A DNA stretch of 64,000 nucleotides from Escherichia coli (lineage in GTDB: Bacteria > Pseudomonadota > Gammaproteobacteria > Enterobacterales > Enterobacteriaceae): the NCBI RefSeq assembly GCF_022846255.1, contig NZ_AP025682.1. One strand, written 5' to 3'. The notes under the pieces are model-generated. The model saw only the letters and a list, made by a program, of their open reading frames with translations, made no database searches and was not told where the DNA came from. Position numbers and translations under genes: made by a program. Below, piece after piece: positions 6,527-29,097 of this stretch; positions within the stretch are counted from its first letter, which is position 1; every line of letters starts with the position of its first letter.

Positions 6527-7786
6527 TTACTTAACCTTCGCAGACTGGATGACGGAGTCCATATTTTTAAACTGGCGGGCATTGACAATAAGATCGCGCG
6601 CCATGGTCAATGCACGTCGTTCACATTCTGCGCGAAGCTCTGTATTTTCAATCTGTTTCAGCTCGGCAACGCCAGCAAAACCAATGATCCGGCGATTCAT
6701 TTCCATGCCGGCATTCACCAGGGAATCTTCAAGCAGCGTGGCAAAAAACTGATCCTGTGCGTCCTCAAGAGCGGCCCTGTTCTGTTGATACATTTCTGTC
6801 GGCCACGCGTCACCCTGTGTTTTGTTGTCCCAGAGCTGGCGGAACTCCCGGGTGAAAACTGACCAGGTGTGGACAATCTGCTGAAGTAGCCATTCCTGAT
6901 AGTCAGCGCGACGTTGCTCATTTGCATCCCACCCAGGGCGTGAGAAGAACGCCAGCAGGAGGTTGCCAATATAGTTGCCGATATCAAACGCCATTGGTCC
7001 CATGAAACCGAACTCCGGATCAATCACTTTGGTATCCGTGTCGGTCACCATGATTGAGCCTGAATGAAGGTCACCATGTAACAATGCCTGCGCTTCTGTC
7101 ATAAATTTGTACTTATAACGCATGGCAACCTGGAGCATCTCTACATCAGCCCAGGCCTTATGGACGGCATCGTCCAGCTCAGGAGAAGTCCAGTTATTCC
7201 GTTCCGCGTTGTAATAGGGCTCTGTGAAGATCAGATCTTCCGTAATTTTGCACAGCTCATGATTCAACGCGAACTCAGCAGTAAGCGCTTTTTTCTGTTC
7301 TGCTGACATGCCAATGTCAGACGTATTAAAGAGAGTCTGTGCTAAAAATCTGCCGATATCTTCAGCTAGCTTAGGGAATTTTTTACCGTTAATCAGTCCC
7401 TTACGCAGAATTACGTGAGGCGTCAAATACTCCATGGCAAACAGTGCCATTTCCGGGTCATAAAAATAGACCTGGGGAATCAGTGTGTGACCCGCGTACT
7501 TGGCTTCCTGACATAAGACGTTGTACTCAAAGCCCGCACGGCTCAGAGATAAAGGCCATCCTTCGCCCCCTGCACGAAGCCAGGGCAGAGCTTGTTTTAC
7601 AATGATGGTTTTATGTGTCCCCTTAACGATAAACACCATGTTCAGGTTTCCGTCCCCCACTTCTGAAACTTTCCACTCTTCTGGTAACCCTCCCGGTTCG
7701 CATGAAGGGGTCAGTCTGGACGAGAGATAACCAGGCAGCGTGTCACATGTCAGCGGCTTGTAACCTGATGGAATTGAATCCGTCAT
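6527..7786 (-). CDS. mtnK: Methylthioribose kinase family protein (MtnK-like); candidate 5-deoxyribose kinase
   Basis: 419 aa with the MtnK/aminoglycoside-kinase-fold catalytic motif HGDLHSGSIM and DPEFGFMGPMAFDIG; first gene of a kinase-isomerase-aldolase-transporter operon. Confidence 0.8.
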   Translation of the reverse strand: MTDSIPSGYKPLTCDTLPGYLSSRLTPSCEPGGLPEEWKVSEVGDGNLNMVFIVKGTHKTIIVKQALPWLRAGGEGWPLSLSRAGFEYNVLCQEAKYAGHTLIPQVYFYDPEMALFAMEYLTPHVILRKGLINGKKFPKLAEDIGRFLAQTLFNTSDIGMSAEQKKALTAEFALNHELCKITEDLIFTEPYYNAERNNWTSPELDDAVHKAWADVEMLQVAMRYKYKFMTEAQALLHGDLHSGSIMVTDTDTKVIDPEFGFMGPMAFDIGNYIGNLLLAFFSRPGWDANEQRRADYQEWLLQQIVHTWSVFTREFRQLWDNKTQGDAWPTEMYQQNRAALEDAQDQFFATLLEDSLVNAGMEMNRRIIGFAGVAELKQIENTELRAECERRALTMARDLIVNARQFKNMDSVIQSAKVK

Positions 7787-7810
7787 AACAGTTCTCCTTA
7801 TCTACACAGA

Positions 7811-7850
7811 ATGATAACTGACTTATCATATGGCAACTATACTTTATCAT
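7811..7850. promoter_or_regulatory. Candidate operator: palindrome ATGATAA-ctgac-TTATCAT plus a third TTATCAT half-site 13 bp away, 25-60 bp upstream of the mtnK-like start
   Basis: Read from sequence at 7811-7829 and 7843-7850, in AT-rich promoter region of the operon. Confidence 0.35.
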
Positions 7851-8291
7851 GTGTAAAGTAATTTGTGATGCATGTAGATTTTTTGAACTGGAGAAAATTA
7901 AAAATAATGTTGTATGGAGTCATGATCTTTACAGGAATTAGTAGGGTGCATTCCTGTTATTTATATAAAATTCATTGTATTACATAAAAATGACGGTGCT
8001 GCGCGGGGAATTGTCTCGGGCAATCTTAGACGAAAGGAAGTATTGAAGTGACAGAATAATCTACATTTTTTATACATGTGTATTTTTCTGTTGTCTTTTG
8101 TTTTTAGCGTATGGTGTTTTTATGCCGATGTCTAATAGACAGATAGATTCGAGGGCCAACAGCCCCATTATCATGATGGAGCAACAGAGGTGAGTCTAAC
8201 GTTTCCGTACTTCTTATCGATCGGCACTAACAATCCTTTGTGATAACGGTATTCCCACACAGAGAAACCCACGTACCTGAATAAAAAAAAG

Positions 8292-8720
8292 ATTACTGGT
8301 GTGGAAATGGGATTAACAGATTATGCCATCAAATCGGATGGTAATGAGGTCAATAATCCTCGTCATCTCATTAACGTCAACTGTAATCTGCGACGCAAAT
8401 TAGCCAGCATGATGAATAATAAACACAATCTGGCAAGAGCGTTAGGTGATGCTGATTGGCACGGCTTTATCAACAAACTGGAGTACAAGGCAGCCGAAAA
8501 AGGCGTTCATCTGGTAAAAATCGACCAGTAGTTTGTCTGTTCGAAAAGCTGCTATTGTTGTGGTTACAAAATGTTGCTTCAAAAACGGATCTGGCGATGC
8601 CCTGAATGCGGTGTTGAACATGACCGGGATATAAATGCGGCAATCAACATAAAACTTAAAGACATACAGGAATTAAAGGCGGCGGGCCCCGTCGTCTCTG
8701 TCTATGGAGGAGCTGCGTAA
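8292..8720 (+). pseudogene. IS200/IS605-family TnpB (RNA-guided nuclease) remnant: C-terminal fragment with internal frameshift/deletion
   Basis: Translation ITGVEMGLTDYAIKSDG...ARALGDADWHGFINKLEYKAAEKGVHLVKID matches the TnpB RuvC region; the zinc-finger segment RCPECGVEHDRDINAAINI follows in another frame; N-terminal ~200 aa absent. Confidence 0.6.
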
Positions 8721-8984
8721 ACCCGTCGTACAGACGGTTGCAGCCTGAAAAGTGGGAAGGCCTTGCCCGATTGGGCGGGGAGTAGTCACCCTTGGAGTCA
8801 TTTTTATCCGGTGTATTAATATGCTCCTAATAGTTAATCTGGTTATAATATTTTTTTTTTGATTATGATCACGAAAATATCTCGGTTTTTATTTGCAAAA
8901 CTTGAAACGTGAATCCAAAAAAGATAAATATTTGTCCGCAGTGACTTCTTTTCTGTTGAAAAGTTCAATCTAAAGGGCAAAAAA

Positions 8985-10097
8985 ATGAAAAAAATTACAG
9001 TGGCACTTTCTGTGGTTGCGGCATCTGTTCTGATGGCAATGTCTGCACAAGCGGCAGAAATCTATAACAAAGACGGTAACAAACTGGATCTGTACGGCAA
9101 AGTTAATGCAGAGCATTACTTCTCTTCTTCAGCTAGTGATGACGGGGATAAAACTTATGCTCGTATGGGTTTCAAAGGTGAAACTCAGATTAATGACCAG
9201 TTAACCGGTTTTGGTCAGTGGGAGTACGAATTTAAAGGTAACCGTACTGAAACTGAAGGTTCTGATAAAGATAAAACTCGTCTTGCGTTTGCAGGGCTTC
9301 GCTTTGGCGATTATGGTTCGCTCGACTATGGTCGCAACTACGGTGTAGCTTATGATGTTGGCGCTTGGACTGACGTGCTGCCGGAGTTTGGTGGAGATAC
9401 CTGGACTCAGACTGATGTATTTATGACCCAGCGTGCTACTGGCGTAGCGACCTATCGTAACAATGATTTCTTCGGCTTGGTTGATGGTCTGAACTTTGCT
9501 TTGCAGTATCAAGGTAAAAATGATAGTGCTGCAAAAGTGAATAACTGGAAAGGCCGTGACGAAGTTGAATCTAATGGTGATGGCTTTGGTCTGTCAGCTA
9601 CTTACGATTATGAGGGATTTGGCGTTGCTGCAACCTATGCAAAATCTGACCGTACTGATGGGCAGGTATCCTATGCTAAAGACAGCCCTCTGAATGCCTC
9701 TGGTAAAACTGCTGAAGTATGGGCTACGGGCCTGAAATATGATGCAAACAACATTTACCTGGCTGCAACTTATTCTGAAACTCAGAATATGACAGTCTTC
9801 GGTGATGACCATATCGCAAACAAAGCGAAAAACTTTGAAGCTGTTGCTCAATACCAGTTTGATTTCGGCTTGCGTCCGTCCATCGCTTACCTACACTCTC
9901 GCGGTGAAAATATTGGTGCGTTCGGTAACCAGGATCTAGTTGAATACATCGACGTAGGTGCGACTTATTACTTCAACAAAAATATGTCCGCTTTCGTTGA
10001 CTACAAGATCAACCTGATTGATGAAAGTGAATTTACCAAAGCATCTGAGGTTGCAACCGACAACATCGTTGCTGTTGGTATGACCTACCAATTCTAA
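8985..10097 (+). CDS. General bacterial porin, OmpC/OmpF/PhoE (GBP) family, divergent paralogue
   Basis: 370 aa; signal peptide ending [20 protein letters not shown], internal [25 protein letters not shown]-terminal YQF typical of 16-strand porins. Confidence 0.9.
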
Positions 10098-22036: not shown

Positions 22037-22609
22037 AGAGAATGGGTATTGTATTCAATTAGTTTAGGAGCTTAAGCTATCGGGGGTAATGCTGATTTAT
22101 TGGCAGTTGTGTACGTATTAGCGCTGCTTTTGCCGTAATACCCAGTAGTTCTTTCCAGCATAACTACAACTGAATGATACCAAAAATACATCTCAAGCTT
22201 TTTATCTTAGTCTTTCTATGATGACAATATTGAAAACTTCAGGATAATTAAAAGGTTAGTATTAATGAAAGTCCTTACATTTAAGCATCTTCTCTCTAAA
22301 CATATTTTCCTTAGAATCGGGGGCCTCAGTATTTAAAATCTTCCAGAGGTGTAATATTCAGCTTTGCTGTGACAACATCGAGAATGGTAAAAATTGATAA
22401 TATATCCTCTGAATATCAGGATGACTACGTTATAATGTATATGAGTTGGATTTGATTAGTTTCAAGGAAAGTGAAATGTGTGAAATAAGTACCAGACCAG
22501 TAGAACAGTAATTAAATACCGGAAAGCAAAGGGGGGAGGGGCGTGCTGACTGCATCTAAAATGAGACTATTACGCCCAGACATAGAGGGAAATAGCCAGT
22601 AGAGTACTT

Positions 22610-23386
22610 TTATTTGTTGGGGGGGGCCTGCTGATCCGTTTCACCAGTTGAGTTTGCAGCTGGAAGTTCTTTTGTCTTTGCTGTATCAATTGATTTGATT
22701 TGTTCGATGGCAGTTATATTACCTGACATTGCTTCATTGAGCACTTCTACTGCCCTACGGGCATCACGATCCTTGATCGACATGTAGACCTTGATATGAG
22801 CTTCCACACTCTCTAGGGTGATACCTAGCGCACGGTTAAGCTCTTCAAGATAGTAGTAATAGATGTCTTTAATCGAGTTCATCACGTTATAGAACACGCT
22901 GTTGTGTGATGCTCTGACTATTGCCAGATGGAACTCGTAATCCGCTTCCGAATACTTTTTGTAGTCCCCCTTATTGATCAACATATTATTCAGAGCTTCT
23001 TCGAGCTGGCGAATGTCGTCGTCGGTGGCGTGAGTGACAGCGAGTTCCACGCATTTGAACTCCACGGTCTGACGGAAAATCATCATATCGTGAAACTCTT
23101 CGCGGCTAAGGTGCATGATAGGACGTGGATCGTTACTCAACATTTGCGGGGTGAAGTTTGTGCTCACGTAGCTGCCACAGCCCTGACGTGTCACAACAAT
23201 CCCCAAGGTGCGAAAGCGCTGAACCGCACTACGTACACTGACCCGGCTTACATTAAATGAGTTGGCCAGCTCTAATTCTGAGGGCAAACGGCTACCTGGT
23301 GGCCAGCTGCCGTCCAGCAGTTTTCCACTTATTTGATCATAAACTTCATTTACAACATTCTGTTTCTGAATGGATTTTATGCTCAA
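22610..23386 (-). CDS. GntR-family regulator (FadR subfamily, FCD effector domain)
   Basis: 258 aa; N-terminal GntR winged HTH (LPSELELANSFNVSRVSVRSAVQRFRTLGIVVTRQGCGSYV); C-terminal codons include an 8-nt homopolymer. Confidence 0.85.
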   Translation of the reverse strand: MSIKSIQKQNVVNEVYDQISGKLLDGSWPPGSRLPSELELANSFNVSRVSVRSAVQRFRTLGIVVTRQGCGSYVSTNFTPQMLSNDPRPIMHLSREEFHDMMIFRQTVEFKCVELAVTHATDDDIRQLEEALNNMLINKGDYKKYSEADYEFHLAIVRASHNSVFYNVMNSIKDIYYYYLEELNRALGITLESVEAHIKVYMSIKDRDARRAVEVLNEAMSGNITAIEQIKSIDTAKTKELPAANSTGETDQQAPPNK

Positions 23387-23464
23387 GATGGGGTCCGAAG
23401 TCAGTTTAGATAAGCCAATAATATATCATCTTTAAAATCAAAGCGCCCAAGTGGGCGCCCTATA

Positions 23465-24751
23465 TTAACAAGTTTGTGCTTTTGCTTCAGTGGATTTTTT
23501 AGTGCTAAACGAGGTGAGTGAGGTGAGCAACACTGCCACAACCAGCGAAGCACTCATAAAGACATAAGAAGCACCTGGATCGCCCGTTAATCCATTCAGA
23601 TAACCGACAATCCATGAACCAACGAATGAGCCCAGAGCACCGAAACTTACGATAAATGCCATCGCACCAGCCATCACATTACGAGGGATAATTTCTGGTA
23701 TTGCGGCAAAGAATGGTCCGTAAGGTGTATACATCGCGCCACCTGCAACCATCAACAGGATATACGAGAGCCAAAAGTTGGATTCTCCAACGGTAAACGA
23801 ACCAATAAAGCAGAACGCACCCAATCCTAAAAACAGAAGAACAATGATTTTACGGTTCATAAATTTATCTGAATACCAAGACGCGCCGAGCATAAGTGAT
23901 ACAGCTAATAAGTAGGGTGCTGCTGATAGCCAACCTATTGCTACGATGCTTAATTCAGATGCTGATTTCAAAATAGACGGTAGCCACATAATAAATCCAT
24001 ACATCCCAATATTCCAGAAGAAGTGGATAAATGAGAGTGATAAGACTTTGCCTGAACGAAATGCTTCGCTGTAGTTTTTAATTTCTTTAATATTGGTTTG
24101 CTCTGCCGCAAGTGCCGCTTCTATATCTTTTTTTTCGTGCTCTGTTAACCAGGTTGCATCTGTGGGGCGATCAACAAAGACAAACCACCAGATAACTGCC
24201 CAAATGATGGCAGGGATGCCTTCGATAATAAACATACCACGCCAGCCAAAGGAGTCCACGAGATAGCCTGATAGCACTGACATCCAGAGTACTGTTATGG
24301 GGTTGCCAAGAAAAAGGAAGGTGTTAGCTTTCGACCTTTCTTTCTTAGTGAACCAATGGCTCAGGAAAACAAGCATGGCAGGCATCACAACGCTTTCAGC
24401 CACGCCGAGTAAGAAGCGAATGACCGCTAGGACCTTAACGTCGTGGACCATGCCGGTCGCTGTCGCTAGTATTCCCCACAGAATTAAGCTCCAAAAAATA
24501 AGCTTCTTGGCACTTCTTTTTTCAGCATAAATCCCTCCAGGTACCTGAAAGAAAAAATATCCAAGGAAGAACAGTGCACCCAGTAGTGAGGAAATCCCTG
24601 GTGTAATATTGAGATCCTCAGCCAGACCGGAGGCAGCACCAAAGCCATAATTAGCGCGATCAAGATAGGCAAGGCTATACGTAATAAATGCCAGCGGGAT
24701 CAACTTACGCCAGCGAATCGGCGCTAATTTTTTATGTATATTCTGAACCAT
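23465..24751 (-). CDS. MFS transporter, anion:cation symporter (ACS) family (hexuronate/aldonate-type, ExuT/DgoT-like)
   Basis: 428 aa; N-terminal region LAFITYSLAYLDRANYGFGAASGLAEDLNITPGISSLLGALFFLGYFFFQVPGG typical of ACS-family sugar-acid permeases. Confidence 0.8.
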   Translation of the reverse strand: MVQNIHKKLAPIRWRKLIPLAFITYSLAYLDRANYGFGAASGLAEDLNITPGISSLLGALFFLGYFFFQVPGGIYAEKRSAKKLIFWSLILWGILATATGMVHDVKVLAVIRFLLGVAESVVMPAMLVFLSHWFTKKERSKANTFLFLGNPITVLWMSVLSGYLVDSFGWRGMFIIEGIPAIIWAVIWWFVFVDRPTDATWLTEHEKKDIEAALAAEQTNIKEIKNYSEAFRSGKVLSLSFIHFFWNIGMYGFIMWLPSILKSASELSIVAIGWLSAAPYLLAVSLMLGASWYSDKFMNRKIIVLLFLGLGAFCFIGSFTVGESNFWLSYILLMVAGGAMYTPYGPFFAAIPEIIPRNVMAGAMAFIVSFGALGSFVGSWIVGYLNGLTGDPGASYVFMSASLVVAVLLTSLTSFSTKKSTEAKAQTC

Positions 24752-24806
24752 GATGTTTTCCCATTTAATTACTGCAGTTCGTATAACGAATGTCAGTAGA
24801 TGTTAA

Positions 24807-25574
24807 TTACAGCACCGCGAGCCACCCACCATCAACGTAAATAATTTGTCCATTGATATAATCTGATGCTTTGGATGATAAGAAGATGGCAGTTCCGATG
24901 AGTTCCTCTGGATGTCCCCAACGTTGGGACGGGTTGCTGTTTTTCACCCAAGAATCGAAGTGTTTGTCTTCGATAAGCGCAGTGTTCATGTCGGTGAGAA
25001 TGTAGCCCGGTCCAATGGCATTGGTCTGAATATTAAACTGTGCCCATTCTGCGGCCATTGAACAGGTAAGCATTTTGATGCCGCCTTTTGCTGCCGTGTA
25101 TGGAGCAACTGTTGGACGTGCGGCCTGGCTAGTGAGTGAACCGATATTAATGATTTTGCCACCGCGTTTATGGTCAATCATCCGCTTTGCCGCCGCGCGG
25201 GACACGAGAAATGCACTAGTTAAGTTCGTGTCGATCACCTTCTGCCAGTTTTCCAACTCCAGTTCAACCATCGGTTTGCGGTACTGAATACCAGCGTTAT
25301 TAATCAGGATATCAATACTGATCCCTTGCGCATCAAGTTGACTAAAAGCTGATTCAATCGCTTGTTCATTGGTGACGTCAAAAGCCACACCGTGCGCATC
25401 GTAACCCTTGCTTGTCAGAGACTTTACTGCTTCTGCCAGCAACGTGTCGCGAATATCATTCAGGATGACTCGAGCACCCGCAACGGCAAGTCCCTCTGCA
25501 TAGGCAAGGCCCAGTCCACGTGCTGCACCTGTTACCAACGCCGTTTTCCCCGTTAAATCAAATAAAGCGTTCAT
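24807..25574 (-). CDS. SDR-family oxidoreductase, gluconate 5-dehydrogenase (IdnO/Gno)-like
   Basis: 255 aa; TGAARGLG cofactor motif, catalytic YTAAK, high similarity in pattern to IdnO/KduD-type dehydrogenases. Confidence 0.85.
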   Translation of the reverse strand: MNALFDLTGKTALVTGAARGLGLAYAEGLAVAGARVILNDIRDTLLAEAVKSLTSKGYDAHGVAFDVTNEQAIESAFSQLDAQGISIDILINNAGIQYRKPMVELELENWQKVIDTNLTSAFLVSRAAAKRMIDHKRGGKIINIGSLTSQAARPTVAPYTAAKGGIKMLTCSMAAEWAQFNIQTNAIGPGYILTDMNTALIEDKHFDSWVKNSNPSQRWGHPEELIGTAIFLSSKASDYINGQIIYVDGGWLAVL

Positions 25575-25909
25575 ATTGTTTCCTCATGCATTTGTGTTGT
25601 ATGACAACTACCTTTTAAAAGGTAGGGGGTTCGCTACGACAAAAGCAACAATGTGCCCATGAATTTGCAACATGGATCACAAATAGCTTTGTGCAATGAT
25701 TGATGGTCTTATTTAATTTATTGAATTATATGGTGTAATATTTATATTGATGAGCATGGTTTGATCACTGTCACAGAATGGCGTTCGCAACGATCACTTG
25801 CAAATGAAGCGTGATATAACAATGTTGGTTGTAGGACAACCTACATGTTGTGTTGTTCATAACGATATGGATATGGCATACGAGAAAATTACTGAGCTGA
25901 GGTGTAAAA

Positions 25910-27163
25910 GTGAGTAGCCTGAAAATAACTAACGTGAAGACGATTCTGACGGCACCAGGCGGCATTGATTTAGCGGTCGTGAAAGTCGAGACCAACGAGC
26001 CAGGACTATACGGGTTGGGATGTGCAACATTTACTCAGCGTATCTTTGCAGTAAAAAGCGCAATCGATGAATACATGGCACCTTTCCTGATTGGGAAAGA
26101 TCCTACTCGTATTGAAGATATCTGGCAGTCGGGTGCGGTGAGTGGCTACTGGCGTAGTGGTCCCATTATGAACAATGCGTTGTCTGGTGTGGACATGGCA
26201 CTGTGGGATATCAAAGGTAAACTGGCGGGGATGCCGGTTTATGACTTGCTGGGTGGCAAATGCCGTGATGGTATCCCACTATACTGTCATACCGACGGTA
26301 GCGATGAAGTTGAAGTAGAAGATAACATCCGTGCCAGAATGGAAGAGGGTTACCAGTATGTTCGCTGCCAGATGGGCATGTACGGCGGCGCGGGGACTGA
26401 TGACCTTAAACTGATCGCTACGCAGTTGGCGCGAGCGAAGAACATTCAGCCGAAGCGTTCGCCCCGCAGCAAAACGCCCGGTATCTACTTTGATCCGGAT
26501 GCCTACGCCAAAAGCGTTCCACGTTTGTTTGATCACCTGCGTAACAAGCTGGGATTTGGCATTGAATTTATTCATGATGTGCACGAGCGTGTCACCCCTG
26601 TGACCGCTGTTAACCTGGCTAAAACGCTCGAACAATATCAGCTGTTTTATCTTGAAGATCCGGTGGCACCTGAAAACATCGACTGGTTGAAAATGCTGCG
26701 TCAGCAGTCTTCCACTCCGATATCCATGGGTGAACTGTTTGTAAATGTGAATGAGTGGAAACCGCTCATCGACAATAAACTCATCGACTACATTCGCTGC
26801 CACGTGAGTACTATTGGTGGCATTACACCGGCGAAAAAACTTGCGGTCTACAGCGAGTTGAACGGTGTGCGAACCGCATGGCATGGGCCGGGCGATATTT
26901 CTCCGGTCGGGGTCTGCGCTAATATGCATCTGGACTTGAGTTCACCGAACTTTGGTATTCAGGAATACACGCCAATGAACGACGCGCTGCGTGATGTATT
27001 TCCGGGCTGCCCTGAGATTGACCGCGGTTATGCCTATCTGAACGAGAAGCCGGGTCTGGGGATTGAGATTGATGAAGCTAAAGCGGCAAAATACCCGTGT
27101 GAGGGTGGGATACCGTCGTGGACGATGGCGCGTACACCTGACGGTACTGCCTCAAGACCATAA
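25910..27163 (+). CDS. Enolase-superfamily sugar-acid dehydratase, D-mannonate dehydratase (ManD)/RspA-like
   Basis: 417 aa from GTG start with AGGTG RBS; mandelate racemase/muconate-lactonizing-enzyme fold character (MALWDIKGKLAGMPVYDLLGG). Confidence 0.8.
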   Translation: MSSLKITNVKTILTAPGGIDLAVVKVETNEPGLYGLGCATFTQRIFAVKSAIDEYMAPFLIGKDPTRIEDIWQSGAVSGYWRSGPIMNNALSGVDMALWDIKGKLAGMPVYDLLGGKCRDGIPLYCHTDGSDEVEVEDNIRARMEEGYQYVRCQMGMYGGAGTDDLKLIATQLARAKNIQPKRSPRSKTPGIYFDPDAYAKSVPRLFDHLRNKLGFGIEFIHDVHERVTPVTAVNLAKTLEQYQLFYLEDPVAPENIDWLKMLRQQSSTPISMGELFVNVNEWKPLIDNKLIDYIRCHVSTIGGITPAKKLAVYSELNGVRTAWHGPGDISPVGVCANMHLDLSSPNFGIQEYTPMNDALRDVFPGCPEIDRGYAYLNEKPGLGIEIDEAKAAKYPCEGGIPSWTMARTPDGTASRP

Positions 27164-27534
27164 GTAATGAAGGGCCCGGTTTGCAGTTGCCGGGTCTGTC
27201 TCCTGTTCCCAGAGTTTTATTTATCTTCATCACTTACAGAGAATGCTCAACATTTGCTAGTCTTTTCCTGTCCAGGTATCCAAAGTCTCCTCCCAAATAT
27301 CCTGGATACTGGCTTAGACAAAATGAGATTATATTTTATAGTAAATTATATCATAACAGCTTTTGTTAAGGATGCTGTGTAAGATAAGATATATGGGTTA
27401 GAGGCATATTCTTTTGCAATCAGGAAGAAGATAATCACTGATGTTATCGGATATGTAGTAGTATTCGGTATAGCTATTTAGAGAAATTTGTGCCACAATT
27501 TATTATAGAGTTTAAAGAAAAATATATTGAAAAT

Positions 27535-27560
27535 AAAATCCGGGCTATTGCCCGGATTTT
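27535..27560. terminator. Hairpin terminator just past the integrase stop (T-rich on both strands)
   Basis: AAAATCCGGGC-tatt-GCCCGGATTTT, flanked by T-runs. Confidence 0.6.
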
Positions 27561-27561
27561 A

Positions 27562-28824
27562 TTATTTTAATGGATTATTAATCTTTGCATATTCAAATGG
27601 ACTGATAAATCTTTCTCTATTTGCATCCAGAAAATCGGCCCACCATTGTAGCATCAGTCGACGTTCTTCCAGATGTTCTGCTTTATGAATGTAAGCAGCA
27701 CGTACACCATTACGCTCCTGATGGCTCATCTGACGTTCCACAGCATCGCGGGACCACAAACCTGATTCAATCAATGCACTGCACGCCATCGCCCGGAATC
27801 CATGGCCACAGACTTCCTGGGTTGTGTCATATCCCATAACCCTCAGGGCTTTATTTACGGTATTTTCGCTGATTGGTTTACGTGGGTCATGTGCCCCCGT
27901 AAAGATCAGACCATTTTCACCAGCCCATGTCTGAAGTTCTGTCAGTATGGCTACAGCCTGTTTGCTGAGTGGCACAAGATGTGGTGTTCGCATCTTGGAG
28001 CCTCGGTGTGAGAATTTTACGCCTGGCAGAGGTTCGCGTTCGGCTGGAATAGTCCACATGGCATTGTCAATATCAATTTCAGACCAGCGGGCATATCTGA
28101 GTTCACTGGAACGAATAAAAACCAGTAAATTCAGCATAACTGCCCGTCGGGTGACAGGCTGGCCTTTATAACCGCCAATACGCGACAGAAGTTCAGGCAG
28201 ACGTGAAAGATCCAGAGCTGGGCGATGCTGGCGTTTTACCGTAGTCAATGCACCAGCCATATCCAGAGCCGGGTTATATCTGATGATGCCAGACTGTACG
28301 GCATAACGCATTACAGCAGATATTCTTTGCTGCAGACGACTGGCGATTTCATAAATTTGTTTAGCTTCTGCAGCACGAACAGGGATAAGCAGGTCCGGGG
28401 TACTGAGTGTTGTGATATCCCGGTTGCCGATAAAGGGGAATACGTGTGTCTCGAGGCTTTTGAGTACTTTATCGCTGTGTGATTGTGCCCATTGTTTATT
28501 ACTGGCATGCCAGCGTCGTGCAATATGTTCAAAAGAGAGCTGTAAATCAGGGACTACTTTTTTAGCTCTTTTCTGTTCGCAAGGGTCAATCCCCTCCGAA
28601 ATCAGTTTTCGGGCCTCATCCCGTTTTGTACGAGCTTCGGAGAGAGAAACTTCTGGATACACACCAAGTGCCAGAGTCTTCTCCTTACCCAGAATACGAT
28701 AACGGAGACGCCAGTAACGGGAACCATTAGGATGAACCAGCAGGAACATGCCGGCCCCGTCAGTGAGTTTATAAGCCTTGTCAGTGGGCTTTGCAGCCCG
28801 GATTTTTGCGTCAGTCAGCGCCAT
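27562..28824 (-). CDS. int: Tyrosine recombinase, P4-type integrase (island integrase)
   Basis: 420 aa, MALTDAKIRAAKPTDKAYKLTDGAGMFLLVHPNGSRYWRLRYR... N-terminal arm-binding region typical of P4-like integrases; start lies 198 bp from the tRNA-Phe 3' end. Confidence 0.9.
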   Translation of the reverse strand: MALTDAKIRAAKPTDKAYKLTDGAGMFLLVHPNGSRYWRLRYRILGKEKTLALGVYPEVSLSEARTKRDEARKLISEGIDPCEQKRAKKVVPDLQLSFEHIARRWHASNKQWAQSHSDKVLKSLETHVFPFIGNRDITTLSTPDLLIPVRAAEAKQIYEIASRLQQRISAVMRYAVQSGIIRYNPALDMAGALTTVKRQHRPALDLSRLPELLSRIGGYKGQPVTRRAVMLNLLVFIRSSELRYARWSEIDIDNAMWTIPAEREPLPGVKFSHRGSKMRTPHLVPLSKQAVAILTELQTWAGENGLIFTGAHDPRKPISENTVNKALRVMGYDTTQEVCGHGFRAMACSALIESGLWSRDAVERQMSHQERNGVRAAYIHKAEHLEERRLMLQWWADFLDANRERFISPFEYAKINNPLK

Positions 28825-28980
28825 AGTTCAGCCTTCTGAATGCGTTAAAGAGGGTACAAATTCTGTCGAACTGGGGTATACCCGCAATTATACCCACACA
28901 ATGGGGTTGATGTGGGGGGAATCTGGTTGAGTTCGGTAGAATTGATTTGTAGGTAGAACGCTTAAATTGTGGCGTTCTGA

Positions 28981-29010
28981 AACGAAAAACGGACCTCCGT
29001 GGAGGTCCGT
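28981..29010 (-). terminator. Rho-independent terminator of tRNA-Phe
   Basis: On minus strand GGACCTCC-ac-GGAGGTCC followed by GTTTTTCGTT. Confidence 0.7.
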
Positions 29011-29021
29011 TGATATGAATT

Positions 29022-29097
29022 TGGTGCCCGGACTCGGAATCGAACCAAGGACACGGGGATTTTCAATCCCCTGCTCTACCGACTGAGCTATCCGGGC
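29022..29097 (-). tRNA. pheV: tRNA-Phe (GAA anticodon)
   Basis: Reverse complement reads GCCCGGATAGCTCAGTCGGTAGAGCAGGGGATTGAAAATCCCCGTGTCCTTGGTTCGATTCCGAGTCCGGGCACCA, the canonical E. coli tRNA-Phe. Confidence 0.95.

Follow-up and report, generated by a model that had tools for sequence, protein, structure and literature searches.

A 64,000-nucleotide stretch of Escherichia coli DNA (the window) carries, between mtnK (6527–7786, minus strand) and an ompC-like porin gene (8985–10097, plus strand), a sequence recalling the RNA-guided nuclease TnpB. The locus raises the question of what this sequence derives from and whether any part of it still acts. Positions 8233–8789 are here assigned, with high confidence, to the dead 3′ portion of an insertion sequence (IS) of the IS200/IS605 family, IS605 group, most likely an inert relic.

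Identity of the remnant and state of tnpB

In DNA alignments to intact IS copies, 8233–8789 (plus strand) corresponds to the last 557 bp, at the 3′ end, of an IS605-group element. Throughout these 557 bp the remnant is collinear with intact elements of Enterobacteriaceae at approximately 80–88% identity (blastn). Among them are a complete 1.78-kb element, L002, which interrupts norW in E. coli TUM9803 and encodes an intact TnpB of 392 amino acids, and an identical copy on plasmid pGF60-C. With the L002 TnpB (L002 2512–3690) as the query, tblastn gave one strong match in the window, residues 174–381 at 8262–8711 (E = 1e-56). The frame-corrected translation matched the Pfam family PF07282 (Cas12f1-like_TNB) with 82.4 bits (E = 2.5e-23; cut-off 26.3), and the Pfam RuvC model PF01385 was absent among its Pfam matches.

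A sequence-only reading of the locus had taken 8292–8720, upstream of the porin gene, for what is left of a decayed IS200/IS605 TnpB, and had proposed alignment to intact IS605/IS609-family TnpB proteins and right ends as the check. The strong match over 8233–8789 bears the identification out, and the interval falls inside the remnant, although the true extent is wider. The same reading held that the motifs would have to be put down to chance if a profile search found no significant similarity to TnpB, and the PF07282 match is such a similarity. That the TnpB-like motifs are a chance resemblance in non-coding DNA has virtually no probability left, since it is refuted by the tblastn and Pfam matches, by the DNA collinearity and by a covariance-model match described below (E = 4e-33), and nothing was found in its favour. 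In the RefSeq/PGAP annotation of E. coli SCEC020001 (NZ_CP032426.1, 911.7–912.3 kb) and other carrier records, the equivalent of 8230–8748 is called a TnpB pseudogene, "frameshifted; internal stop; incomplete". The pseudogene status is thus already in public annotation, and is known and ordinary.

Intact relatives of the remnant have tnpA and tnpB in divergent orientation, and their TnpB is a clear homologue of that of ISDra2 (PDB 8EXA, 8BF8, 8H1J; E = 4e-79 over residues 4–382). WP_045145569.1 is one such intact related TnpB. The copy in phage RCS47, annotated as ISEc46, is a more distant relative of the remnant. The first block of the remnant, 8233–8399, is 88% identical to the L002-type IS and only about 75% identical to other sub-lineages, whereas the second block, 8401–8789, is about 80% identical to both alike. 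This contrast hints that the progenitor IS was perhaps of mosaic or recombinant ancestry.

The TnpB pseudogene occupies 8233–8748 (plus strand) and corresponds approximately to residues 163–392 of the intact protein, as placed by the DNA alignment to L002, tblastn and the PGAP annotation. Its left truncation junction is at 8232/8233, where the mtnK-side island DNA stops and the TnpB homology starts, with a break in homology on both sides. In the alignment to L002 everything to the left of codon 163 or so is missing, that is the left end, tnpA and residues 1–162. The N-terminal loss had been put at about 200 residues; the truncation is real, but it removes 162 residues, and residues 220–275 or so are gone through a separate deletion. 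This internal deletion of 168 nt (junction at 8400/8401, plus strand; alignment gap L002 3170–3337) has the junction sequence CGCAAATTAGCCAGC and takes out the RuvC-II Glu (E272 of IVETLK). Translation against D188 of the intact protein, and against an ISDra2-type alignment, places the RuvC-I Asp codon at 8304–8306 (plus strand), where it has become a Glu codon (GVDMGL to GVEMGL).

The other lesions, likewise on the plus strand and placed by alignment to intact IS copies, are a 1-nt deletion at 8259/8260 and a 1-nt insertion at 8711, which both shift the frame, a 3-nt insertion at 8421–8423, a 9-nt deletion at 8568/8569 and a 1-nt insertion at 8759. A TGG codon has in addition become a premature TAG stop at 8529–8531 (alignment and translation). 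The frameshifting recognised earlier is thereby confirmed at two places, together with the stop. Kept is the region of the zinc finger (CxxC...CxxC) and of HDRD (RuvC-III) at 8550–8630 (plus strand), which is apparent in the PF07282 match and in the translation, with the cysteines at 8550–8561 and 8598–8609 and HDRD at 8619–8630. The zinc-finger part of the earlier description therefore stands, but the RuvC-like region is only partial, with motif I changed, motif II deleted and PF01385 unmatched. The complete D-E-D catalytic triad of RuvC is lacking, the HDRD motif alone being left, and so is an intact full-length reading frame (about 390 amino acids) with N-terminal WED/REC domains. Intact IS605-group elements have a left end, tnpA and a full tnpB; the remnant, in contrast, has none of these and carries the 168-nt deletion, the stop, the frameshifts and the D-to-E change besides. 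As the gene is truncated, frameshifted and interrupted by a stop, and has lost RuvC-II and the RuvC-I Asp, production of a nuclease is ruled out.

The termini of the element were defined by two identical IS copies at different sites (L002 and L003). No match to TnpA, the Y1 HUH transposase, better than E = 2 was found in the 64-kb window by tblastn, which agrees with the earlier statement that TnpA is absent. The left end of the intact element, with its subterminal hairpin beside the TAM/target motif, had no blastn match within the window, and the 64 kb contained no second tnpB. With neither TnpA nor a left end, transposition is impossible for the remnant.

Next to the left end, independent intact copies have TTCAG, TTTAG, ATCAG or CTTAG (L002 1949–1953; L003; L008–L035), which suggests a TTYAG-like target or TAM for the intact IS lineage. 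The left-end and right-end hairpins both carry a CCCTCGCCC...GGGCGGGG core.

Right end and omega-RNA scaffold

In more than 20 further independent insertions, homology to the window ends exactly at 8789 (plus strand), after ...GGGCGGGGAG(C/T)AGTCAC. These insertions come from E. coli, IMG/VR contigs, Photorhabdus, Kluyvera, Arsenophonus, Izhakiella and metagenome-assembled genomes. The remnant has the conserved AGTCAC at 8789 and a subterminal hairpin at 8761–8780 (plus strand), the latter aligned with 20+ copies. Because the terminus at 8789 is common to more than 20 independent insertions, the right end of the remnant can be regarded as complete; this terminus, the terminal hairpin and the architecture of the scaffold are shared with the intact IS605-group elements.

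A covariance model, R1, was made from 22 aligned intact right ends, the window being left out, and their RNAalifold consensus of 37 pairs, 12 of which have compensatory changes. R1 had a single match in the window, at 8638–8789 (plus strand), with 132 bits (E = 4.3e-33), where the intact copies score 133–182 bits. This omega-RNA scaffold runs over the 3′ part of the tnpB reading frame and finishes with the right end of the IS. From the sequence alone it had been supposed that an omega RNA region might persist at about 8700–8800, and a covariance-model search of 8650–8850 had been suggested. Such a search does recover a retained scaffold and right end, but at a location which overlaps the guess in part only. 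The omega-RNA scaffold and the right-end hairpin are thus still intact in sequence and structure.

The scaffold in the window has 14 substitutions, 7 of them at paired positions, and only one of the 37 pairs is broken. Random placement would break 5.3 ± 1.7 pairs (P approximately 0.01, from a simple simulation and an alignment fitted to the model). The U-to-A change on the 5′ side of the broken pair is also found in the Photorhabdus copy L029, and one pair displays a true C-G to U-A double change. The low number of broken pairs could hint at continued selection on the RNA, and divergence at a time when the IS was still active accounts for it equally well. A scan of 7700–9100 with Rfam 15 at E values up to 10 gave no match overlapping 8638–8789 and only chance-level snoRNA and sRNA matches. 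In single-sequence folding, which is weak evidence beside the covariance model, 8640–8809 was not distinguishable from shuffles (z = −0.79), and an intact copy gave z = −2.05.

The guide-RNA scaffold of ISDra2 extends across the tnpB 3′ end as far as the right end, beyond which the flank supplies the guide. The remnant shares the arrangement of a scaffold running over the tnpB 3′ end to the right end. Unlike ISDra2, however, it no longer has a working protein partner; all that survives is the DNA that encodes the RNA and forms the right end, and its transcription is putative. The locus illustrates how, in a TnpB element, the right end with its RNA-coding part can persist after the protein gene has been lost.

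Genomic setting and history

The segment 8100–8900 of the window has a full-length match of 99.8% in 11 complete E. coli chromosomes and a partial one in a twelfth; among 5426 complete E. coli genomes, only these 12 carry the remnant locus. Its two flanks have different affinities. The left flank, 7787–8235, has its counterpart (83% identity) in the intergenic DNA next to mtnK in 1062 E. coli genomes, that of Nissle 1917 included, and the homology to this Nissle-type DNA parts at about 8232–8235, where the TnpB homology begins (8232/8233). The right flank, from about 8796–8800 through the porin gene, matches, at 93–95% identity, an ompC-like module found on about 99 plasmids of E. coli. These plasmids, roughly 90–160 kb in size, lack an IS ahead of the porin gene, and the module lies there between a gene for a 996-aa hypothetical protein and ssb, a lysozyme gene and a gene for a head-processing protein. 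By gene content they look like P1-type phage-plasmids, and the chromosomal porin gene appears to be phage-plasmid-derived cargo. The region as a whole is located within a tRNA-Phe island, with a P4-type integrase gene at 27562–28824 and tRNA-Phe at 29022–29097. The remnant thus marks a scar at the seam at which a porin module of the phage-plasmid type was joined to an island bearing mtnK and mtnA.

The formation of the seam may be depicted as follows: The IS was probably inserted first, about 195 bp upstream of the ompC-like porin gene. Later, illegitimate recombination or a deletion would have cut through tnpB, removing the left end, tnpA and the first 162 tnpB codons, and the rest would have been fused to the DNA beside mtnK in the tRNA-Phe island. 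This order of insertion and then truncation is suggested by the contrast between a clean junction at the right end and a ragged one on the left. An intact progenitor or an empty site was not found in complete E. coli genomes, PLSDB, INPHARED, GTDB species, JGI or protein searches. The best match to the remnant among the PLSDB plasmids was about 80%, and the INPHARED phages contained only the ISEc46 of RCS47 (76%). With peptide patterns of the remnant, GTDB at one genome per species gave 11 loci, all of them distant relatives, and the exact junction of right end and flank (GAGTAGTCACCCTTGGAGTC) had 0 matches in the JGI metagenomes. A search of 5.8 billion proteins returned a best match of about 75% amino acid identity, in the C-terminal part. 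The porin upstream regions of the phage-plasmids are too diverged (about 84%) for the pre-insertion site or its TAM to be placed exactly. The nearest intact copies in all collections searched are approximately 80–83% identical in DNA and 75% in protein, and since no copy was closer than about 83% in nucleotides or 75% in amino acids, the remnant comes from an unsampled or extinct sub-lineage.

Differences between the remnant and L002 amount to 12%, 11% and 23% at the three codon positions, and those of the intact copy L011, of similar divergence, to 11%, 8% and 23%. The ratio of third to first and second positions is 2.0 in the remnant, against 2.4–3.6 in the intact copies compared. As a rough estimate, this suggests that most of the divergence of about 15–20% arose under selection, and perhaps a few percent by neutral decay after inactivation. 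The insertion had been called ancient; this is only roughly supported, for the codon-position pattern suggests that most of the divergence precedes the inactivation. Erosion of the remnant continues, as is seen in E. coli CDE2901 (L038, NZ_CP170179.1), in which an IS903B is located inside the remnant at the equivalent of about 8381. Only the part from there onward is contiguous with the porin gene in this strain, and PGAP lists it as a pseudogene of a 'zinc ribbon domain-containing protein'.

Several features of the surrounding island were recorded alongside. In the segment 3622–7786 an mtnK-mtnA cluster is accompanied by genes for a fuculose-phosphate-aldolase-like protein and a GRP sugar transporter; it presumably resembles the ExPEC cluster for salvage of SAM by-products (DHAP shunt). 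About 1060 of 5426 E. coli genomes, among them Nissle 1917, have the 83% identical version of the flank of this cluster. Directly downstream of the porin gene, at 10351–11512, is a frameshifted pseudogene of an IS3-family transposase, for the equivalent of which the annotation of CDE2901 gives an intact ISEc16 whose frameshift is programmed. The content of the island at 11564–29016 is unlike that of the otherwise 98% identical reference strain SCEC020001. It comprises genes for MFS transporters, an M20 peptidase, an Na+/H+ antiporter-family protein, an aminotransferase, an SDR and an enolase-superfamily enzyme, followed by the P4-type integrase, where SCEC020001 has ISApl1, a type I R-M system, a group II intron and sugar-utilisation genes.

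Residual function of the scaffold and its flank

If an RNA were made from the scaffold, the 16 nt 3′ of the right end (8790–8805, plus strand), CCTTGGAGTCATTTTT, would be its guide. Within the window this sequence matches only itself, apart from one chance-level match with 3 mismatches at 49636–49651. A target of TnpB requires an adjoining TAM. The guide's own match is preceded by the right end and not by the TTYAG-type motif seen at intact left ends; it therefore has no TAM, and the guide has no licensed target there. A consensus scan, which is a crude and weak test, detected no sigma-70-like site on the plus strand within 8233–8789, and a scan for promoters and terminators gave nothing above the shuffle expectation; transcription by read-through, or from a promoter of another kind than sigma-70, would escape such a scan. 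The promoter region of tnpB and the 5′ part of its mRNA are gone from the remnant. Given that its plus strand has no promoter-like site, that the window encodes no cognate TnpB and that the match of the guide lacks a TAM, the remnant is most likely an inert relic.

An alternative to the inert relic is an orphan guide RNA that is still in use: scaffold and guide would be transcribed, and the RNA would either be taken up in trans by a related TnpB whose gene lies elsewhere in the genome or on a plasmid, or serve as a small regulatory RNA. The structural integrity of the scaffold (132 bits and a single broken pair) would fit such use, and so would the related intact IS copies that are common on plasmids and chromosomes of E. 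coli, Salmonella and Klebsiella; one carrier genome (H6) has a second place matching the query. Most carrier chromosomes, however, contain just this one copy, and the remnant offers neither a promoter-like site on the plus strand nor the tnpB promoter region and 5′ mRNA. A TnpB loaded with this guide would lack a licensed target, because the guide matches only its own flank, without a TTYAG-type TAM. Moreover, the divergence of the scaffold is similar to that of the dead coding part (roughly 82% versus 80–88%), and the IS903B disrupts the remnant in one strain. Continued use of an orphan guide RNA is consequently very unlikely. The statement that the locus could still yield a structured RNA holds only for its capacity to fold, given the R1 score; expression would be hypothetical, as the plus strand of the remnant has no promoter-like site. 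In a more specific form, the scaffold at 8638–8789 would be transcribed, for example by read-through, and captured in trans by the TnpB of a related IS on co-resident phage-plasmids, or would act in cis or in trans as a regulatory RNA for the porin. This is scarcely probable; if true, the guide RNA would here have survived the loss of its nuclease. Pseudogenes of TnpB are common, and the present one matters little unless the orphan scaffold proves to be expressed.

The remnant might instead have been kept as a promoter, insulator or regulatory element for the porin gene downstream. Its right end is 195 bp from the porin ATG (8985), and the junction of right end and porin gene is kept in all 12 carriers. 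These carriers are, however, about 99.8% identical, so that the co-retention reflects recent common descent rather than selection, and the remnant has no outward promoter-like site on the plus strand. Furthermore, the porin gene brings its own control region, because the roughly 185 bp at about 8800–8984 are homologous to phage-plasmid copies which lack an upstream IS. The porin very probably uses this promoter region (8800–8984) of its own, and a regulatory role of the remnant is improbable to a high degree.

Domestication of the kind known from TldR was also considered for what is here regarded as an inert relic. TldRs are TnpB-like, nuclease-dead repressors with full-length intact reading frames and a conserved guide that targets a promoter. 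The remnant is like them in the loss of RuvC catalytic residues and in its position just upstream of a gene for a surface protein. It is nevertheless not TldR-like, as the truncation, the frameshifts and the stop leave no intact reading frame, and this candidate was rejected.
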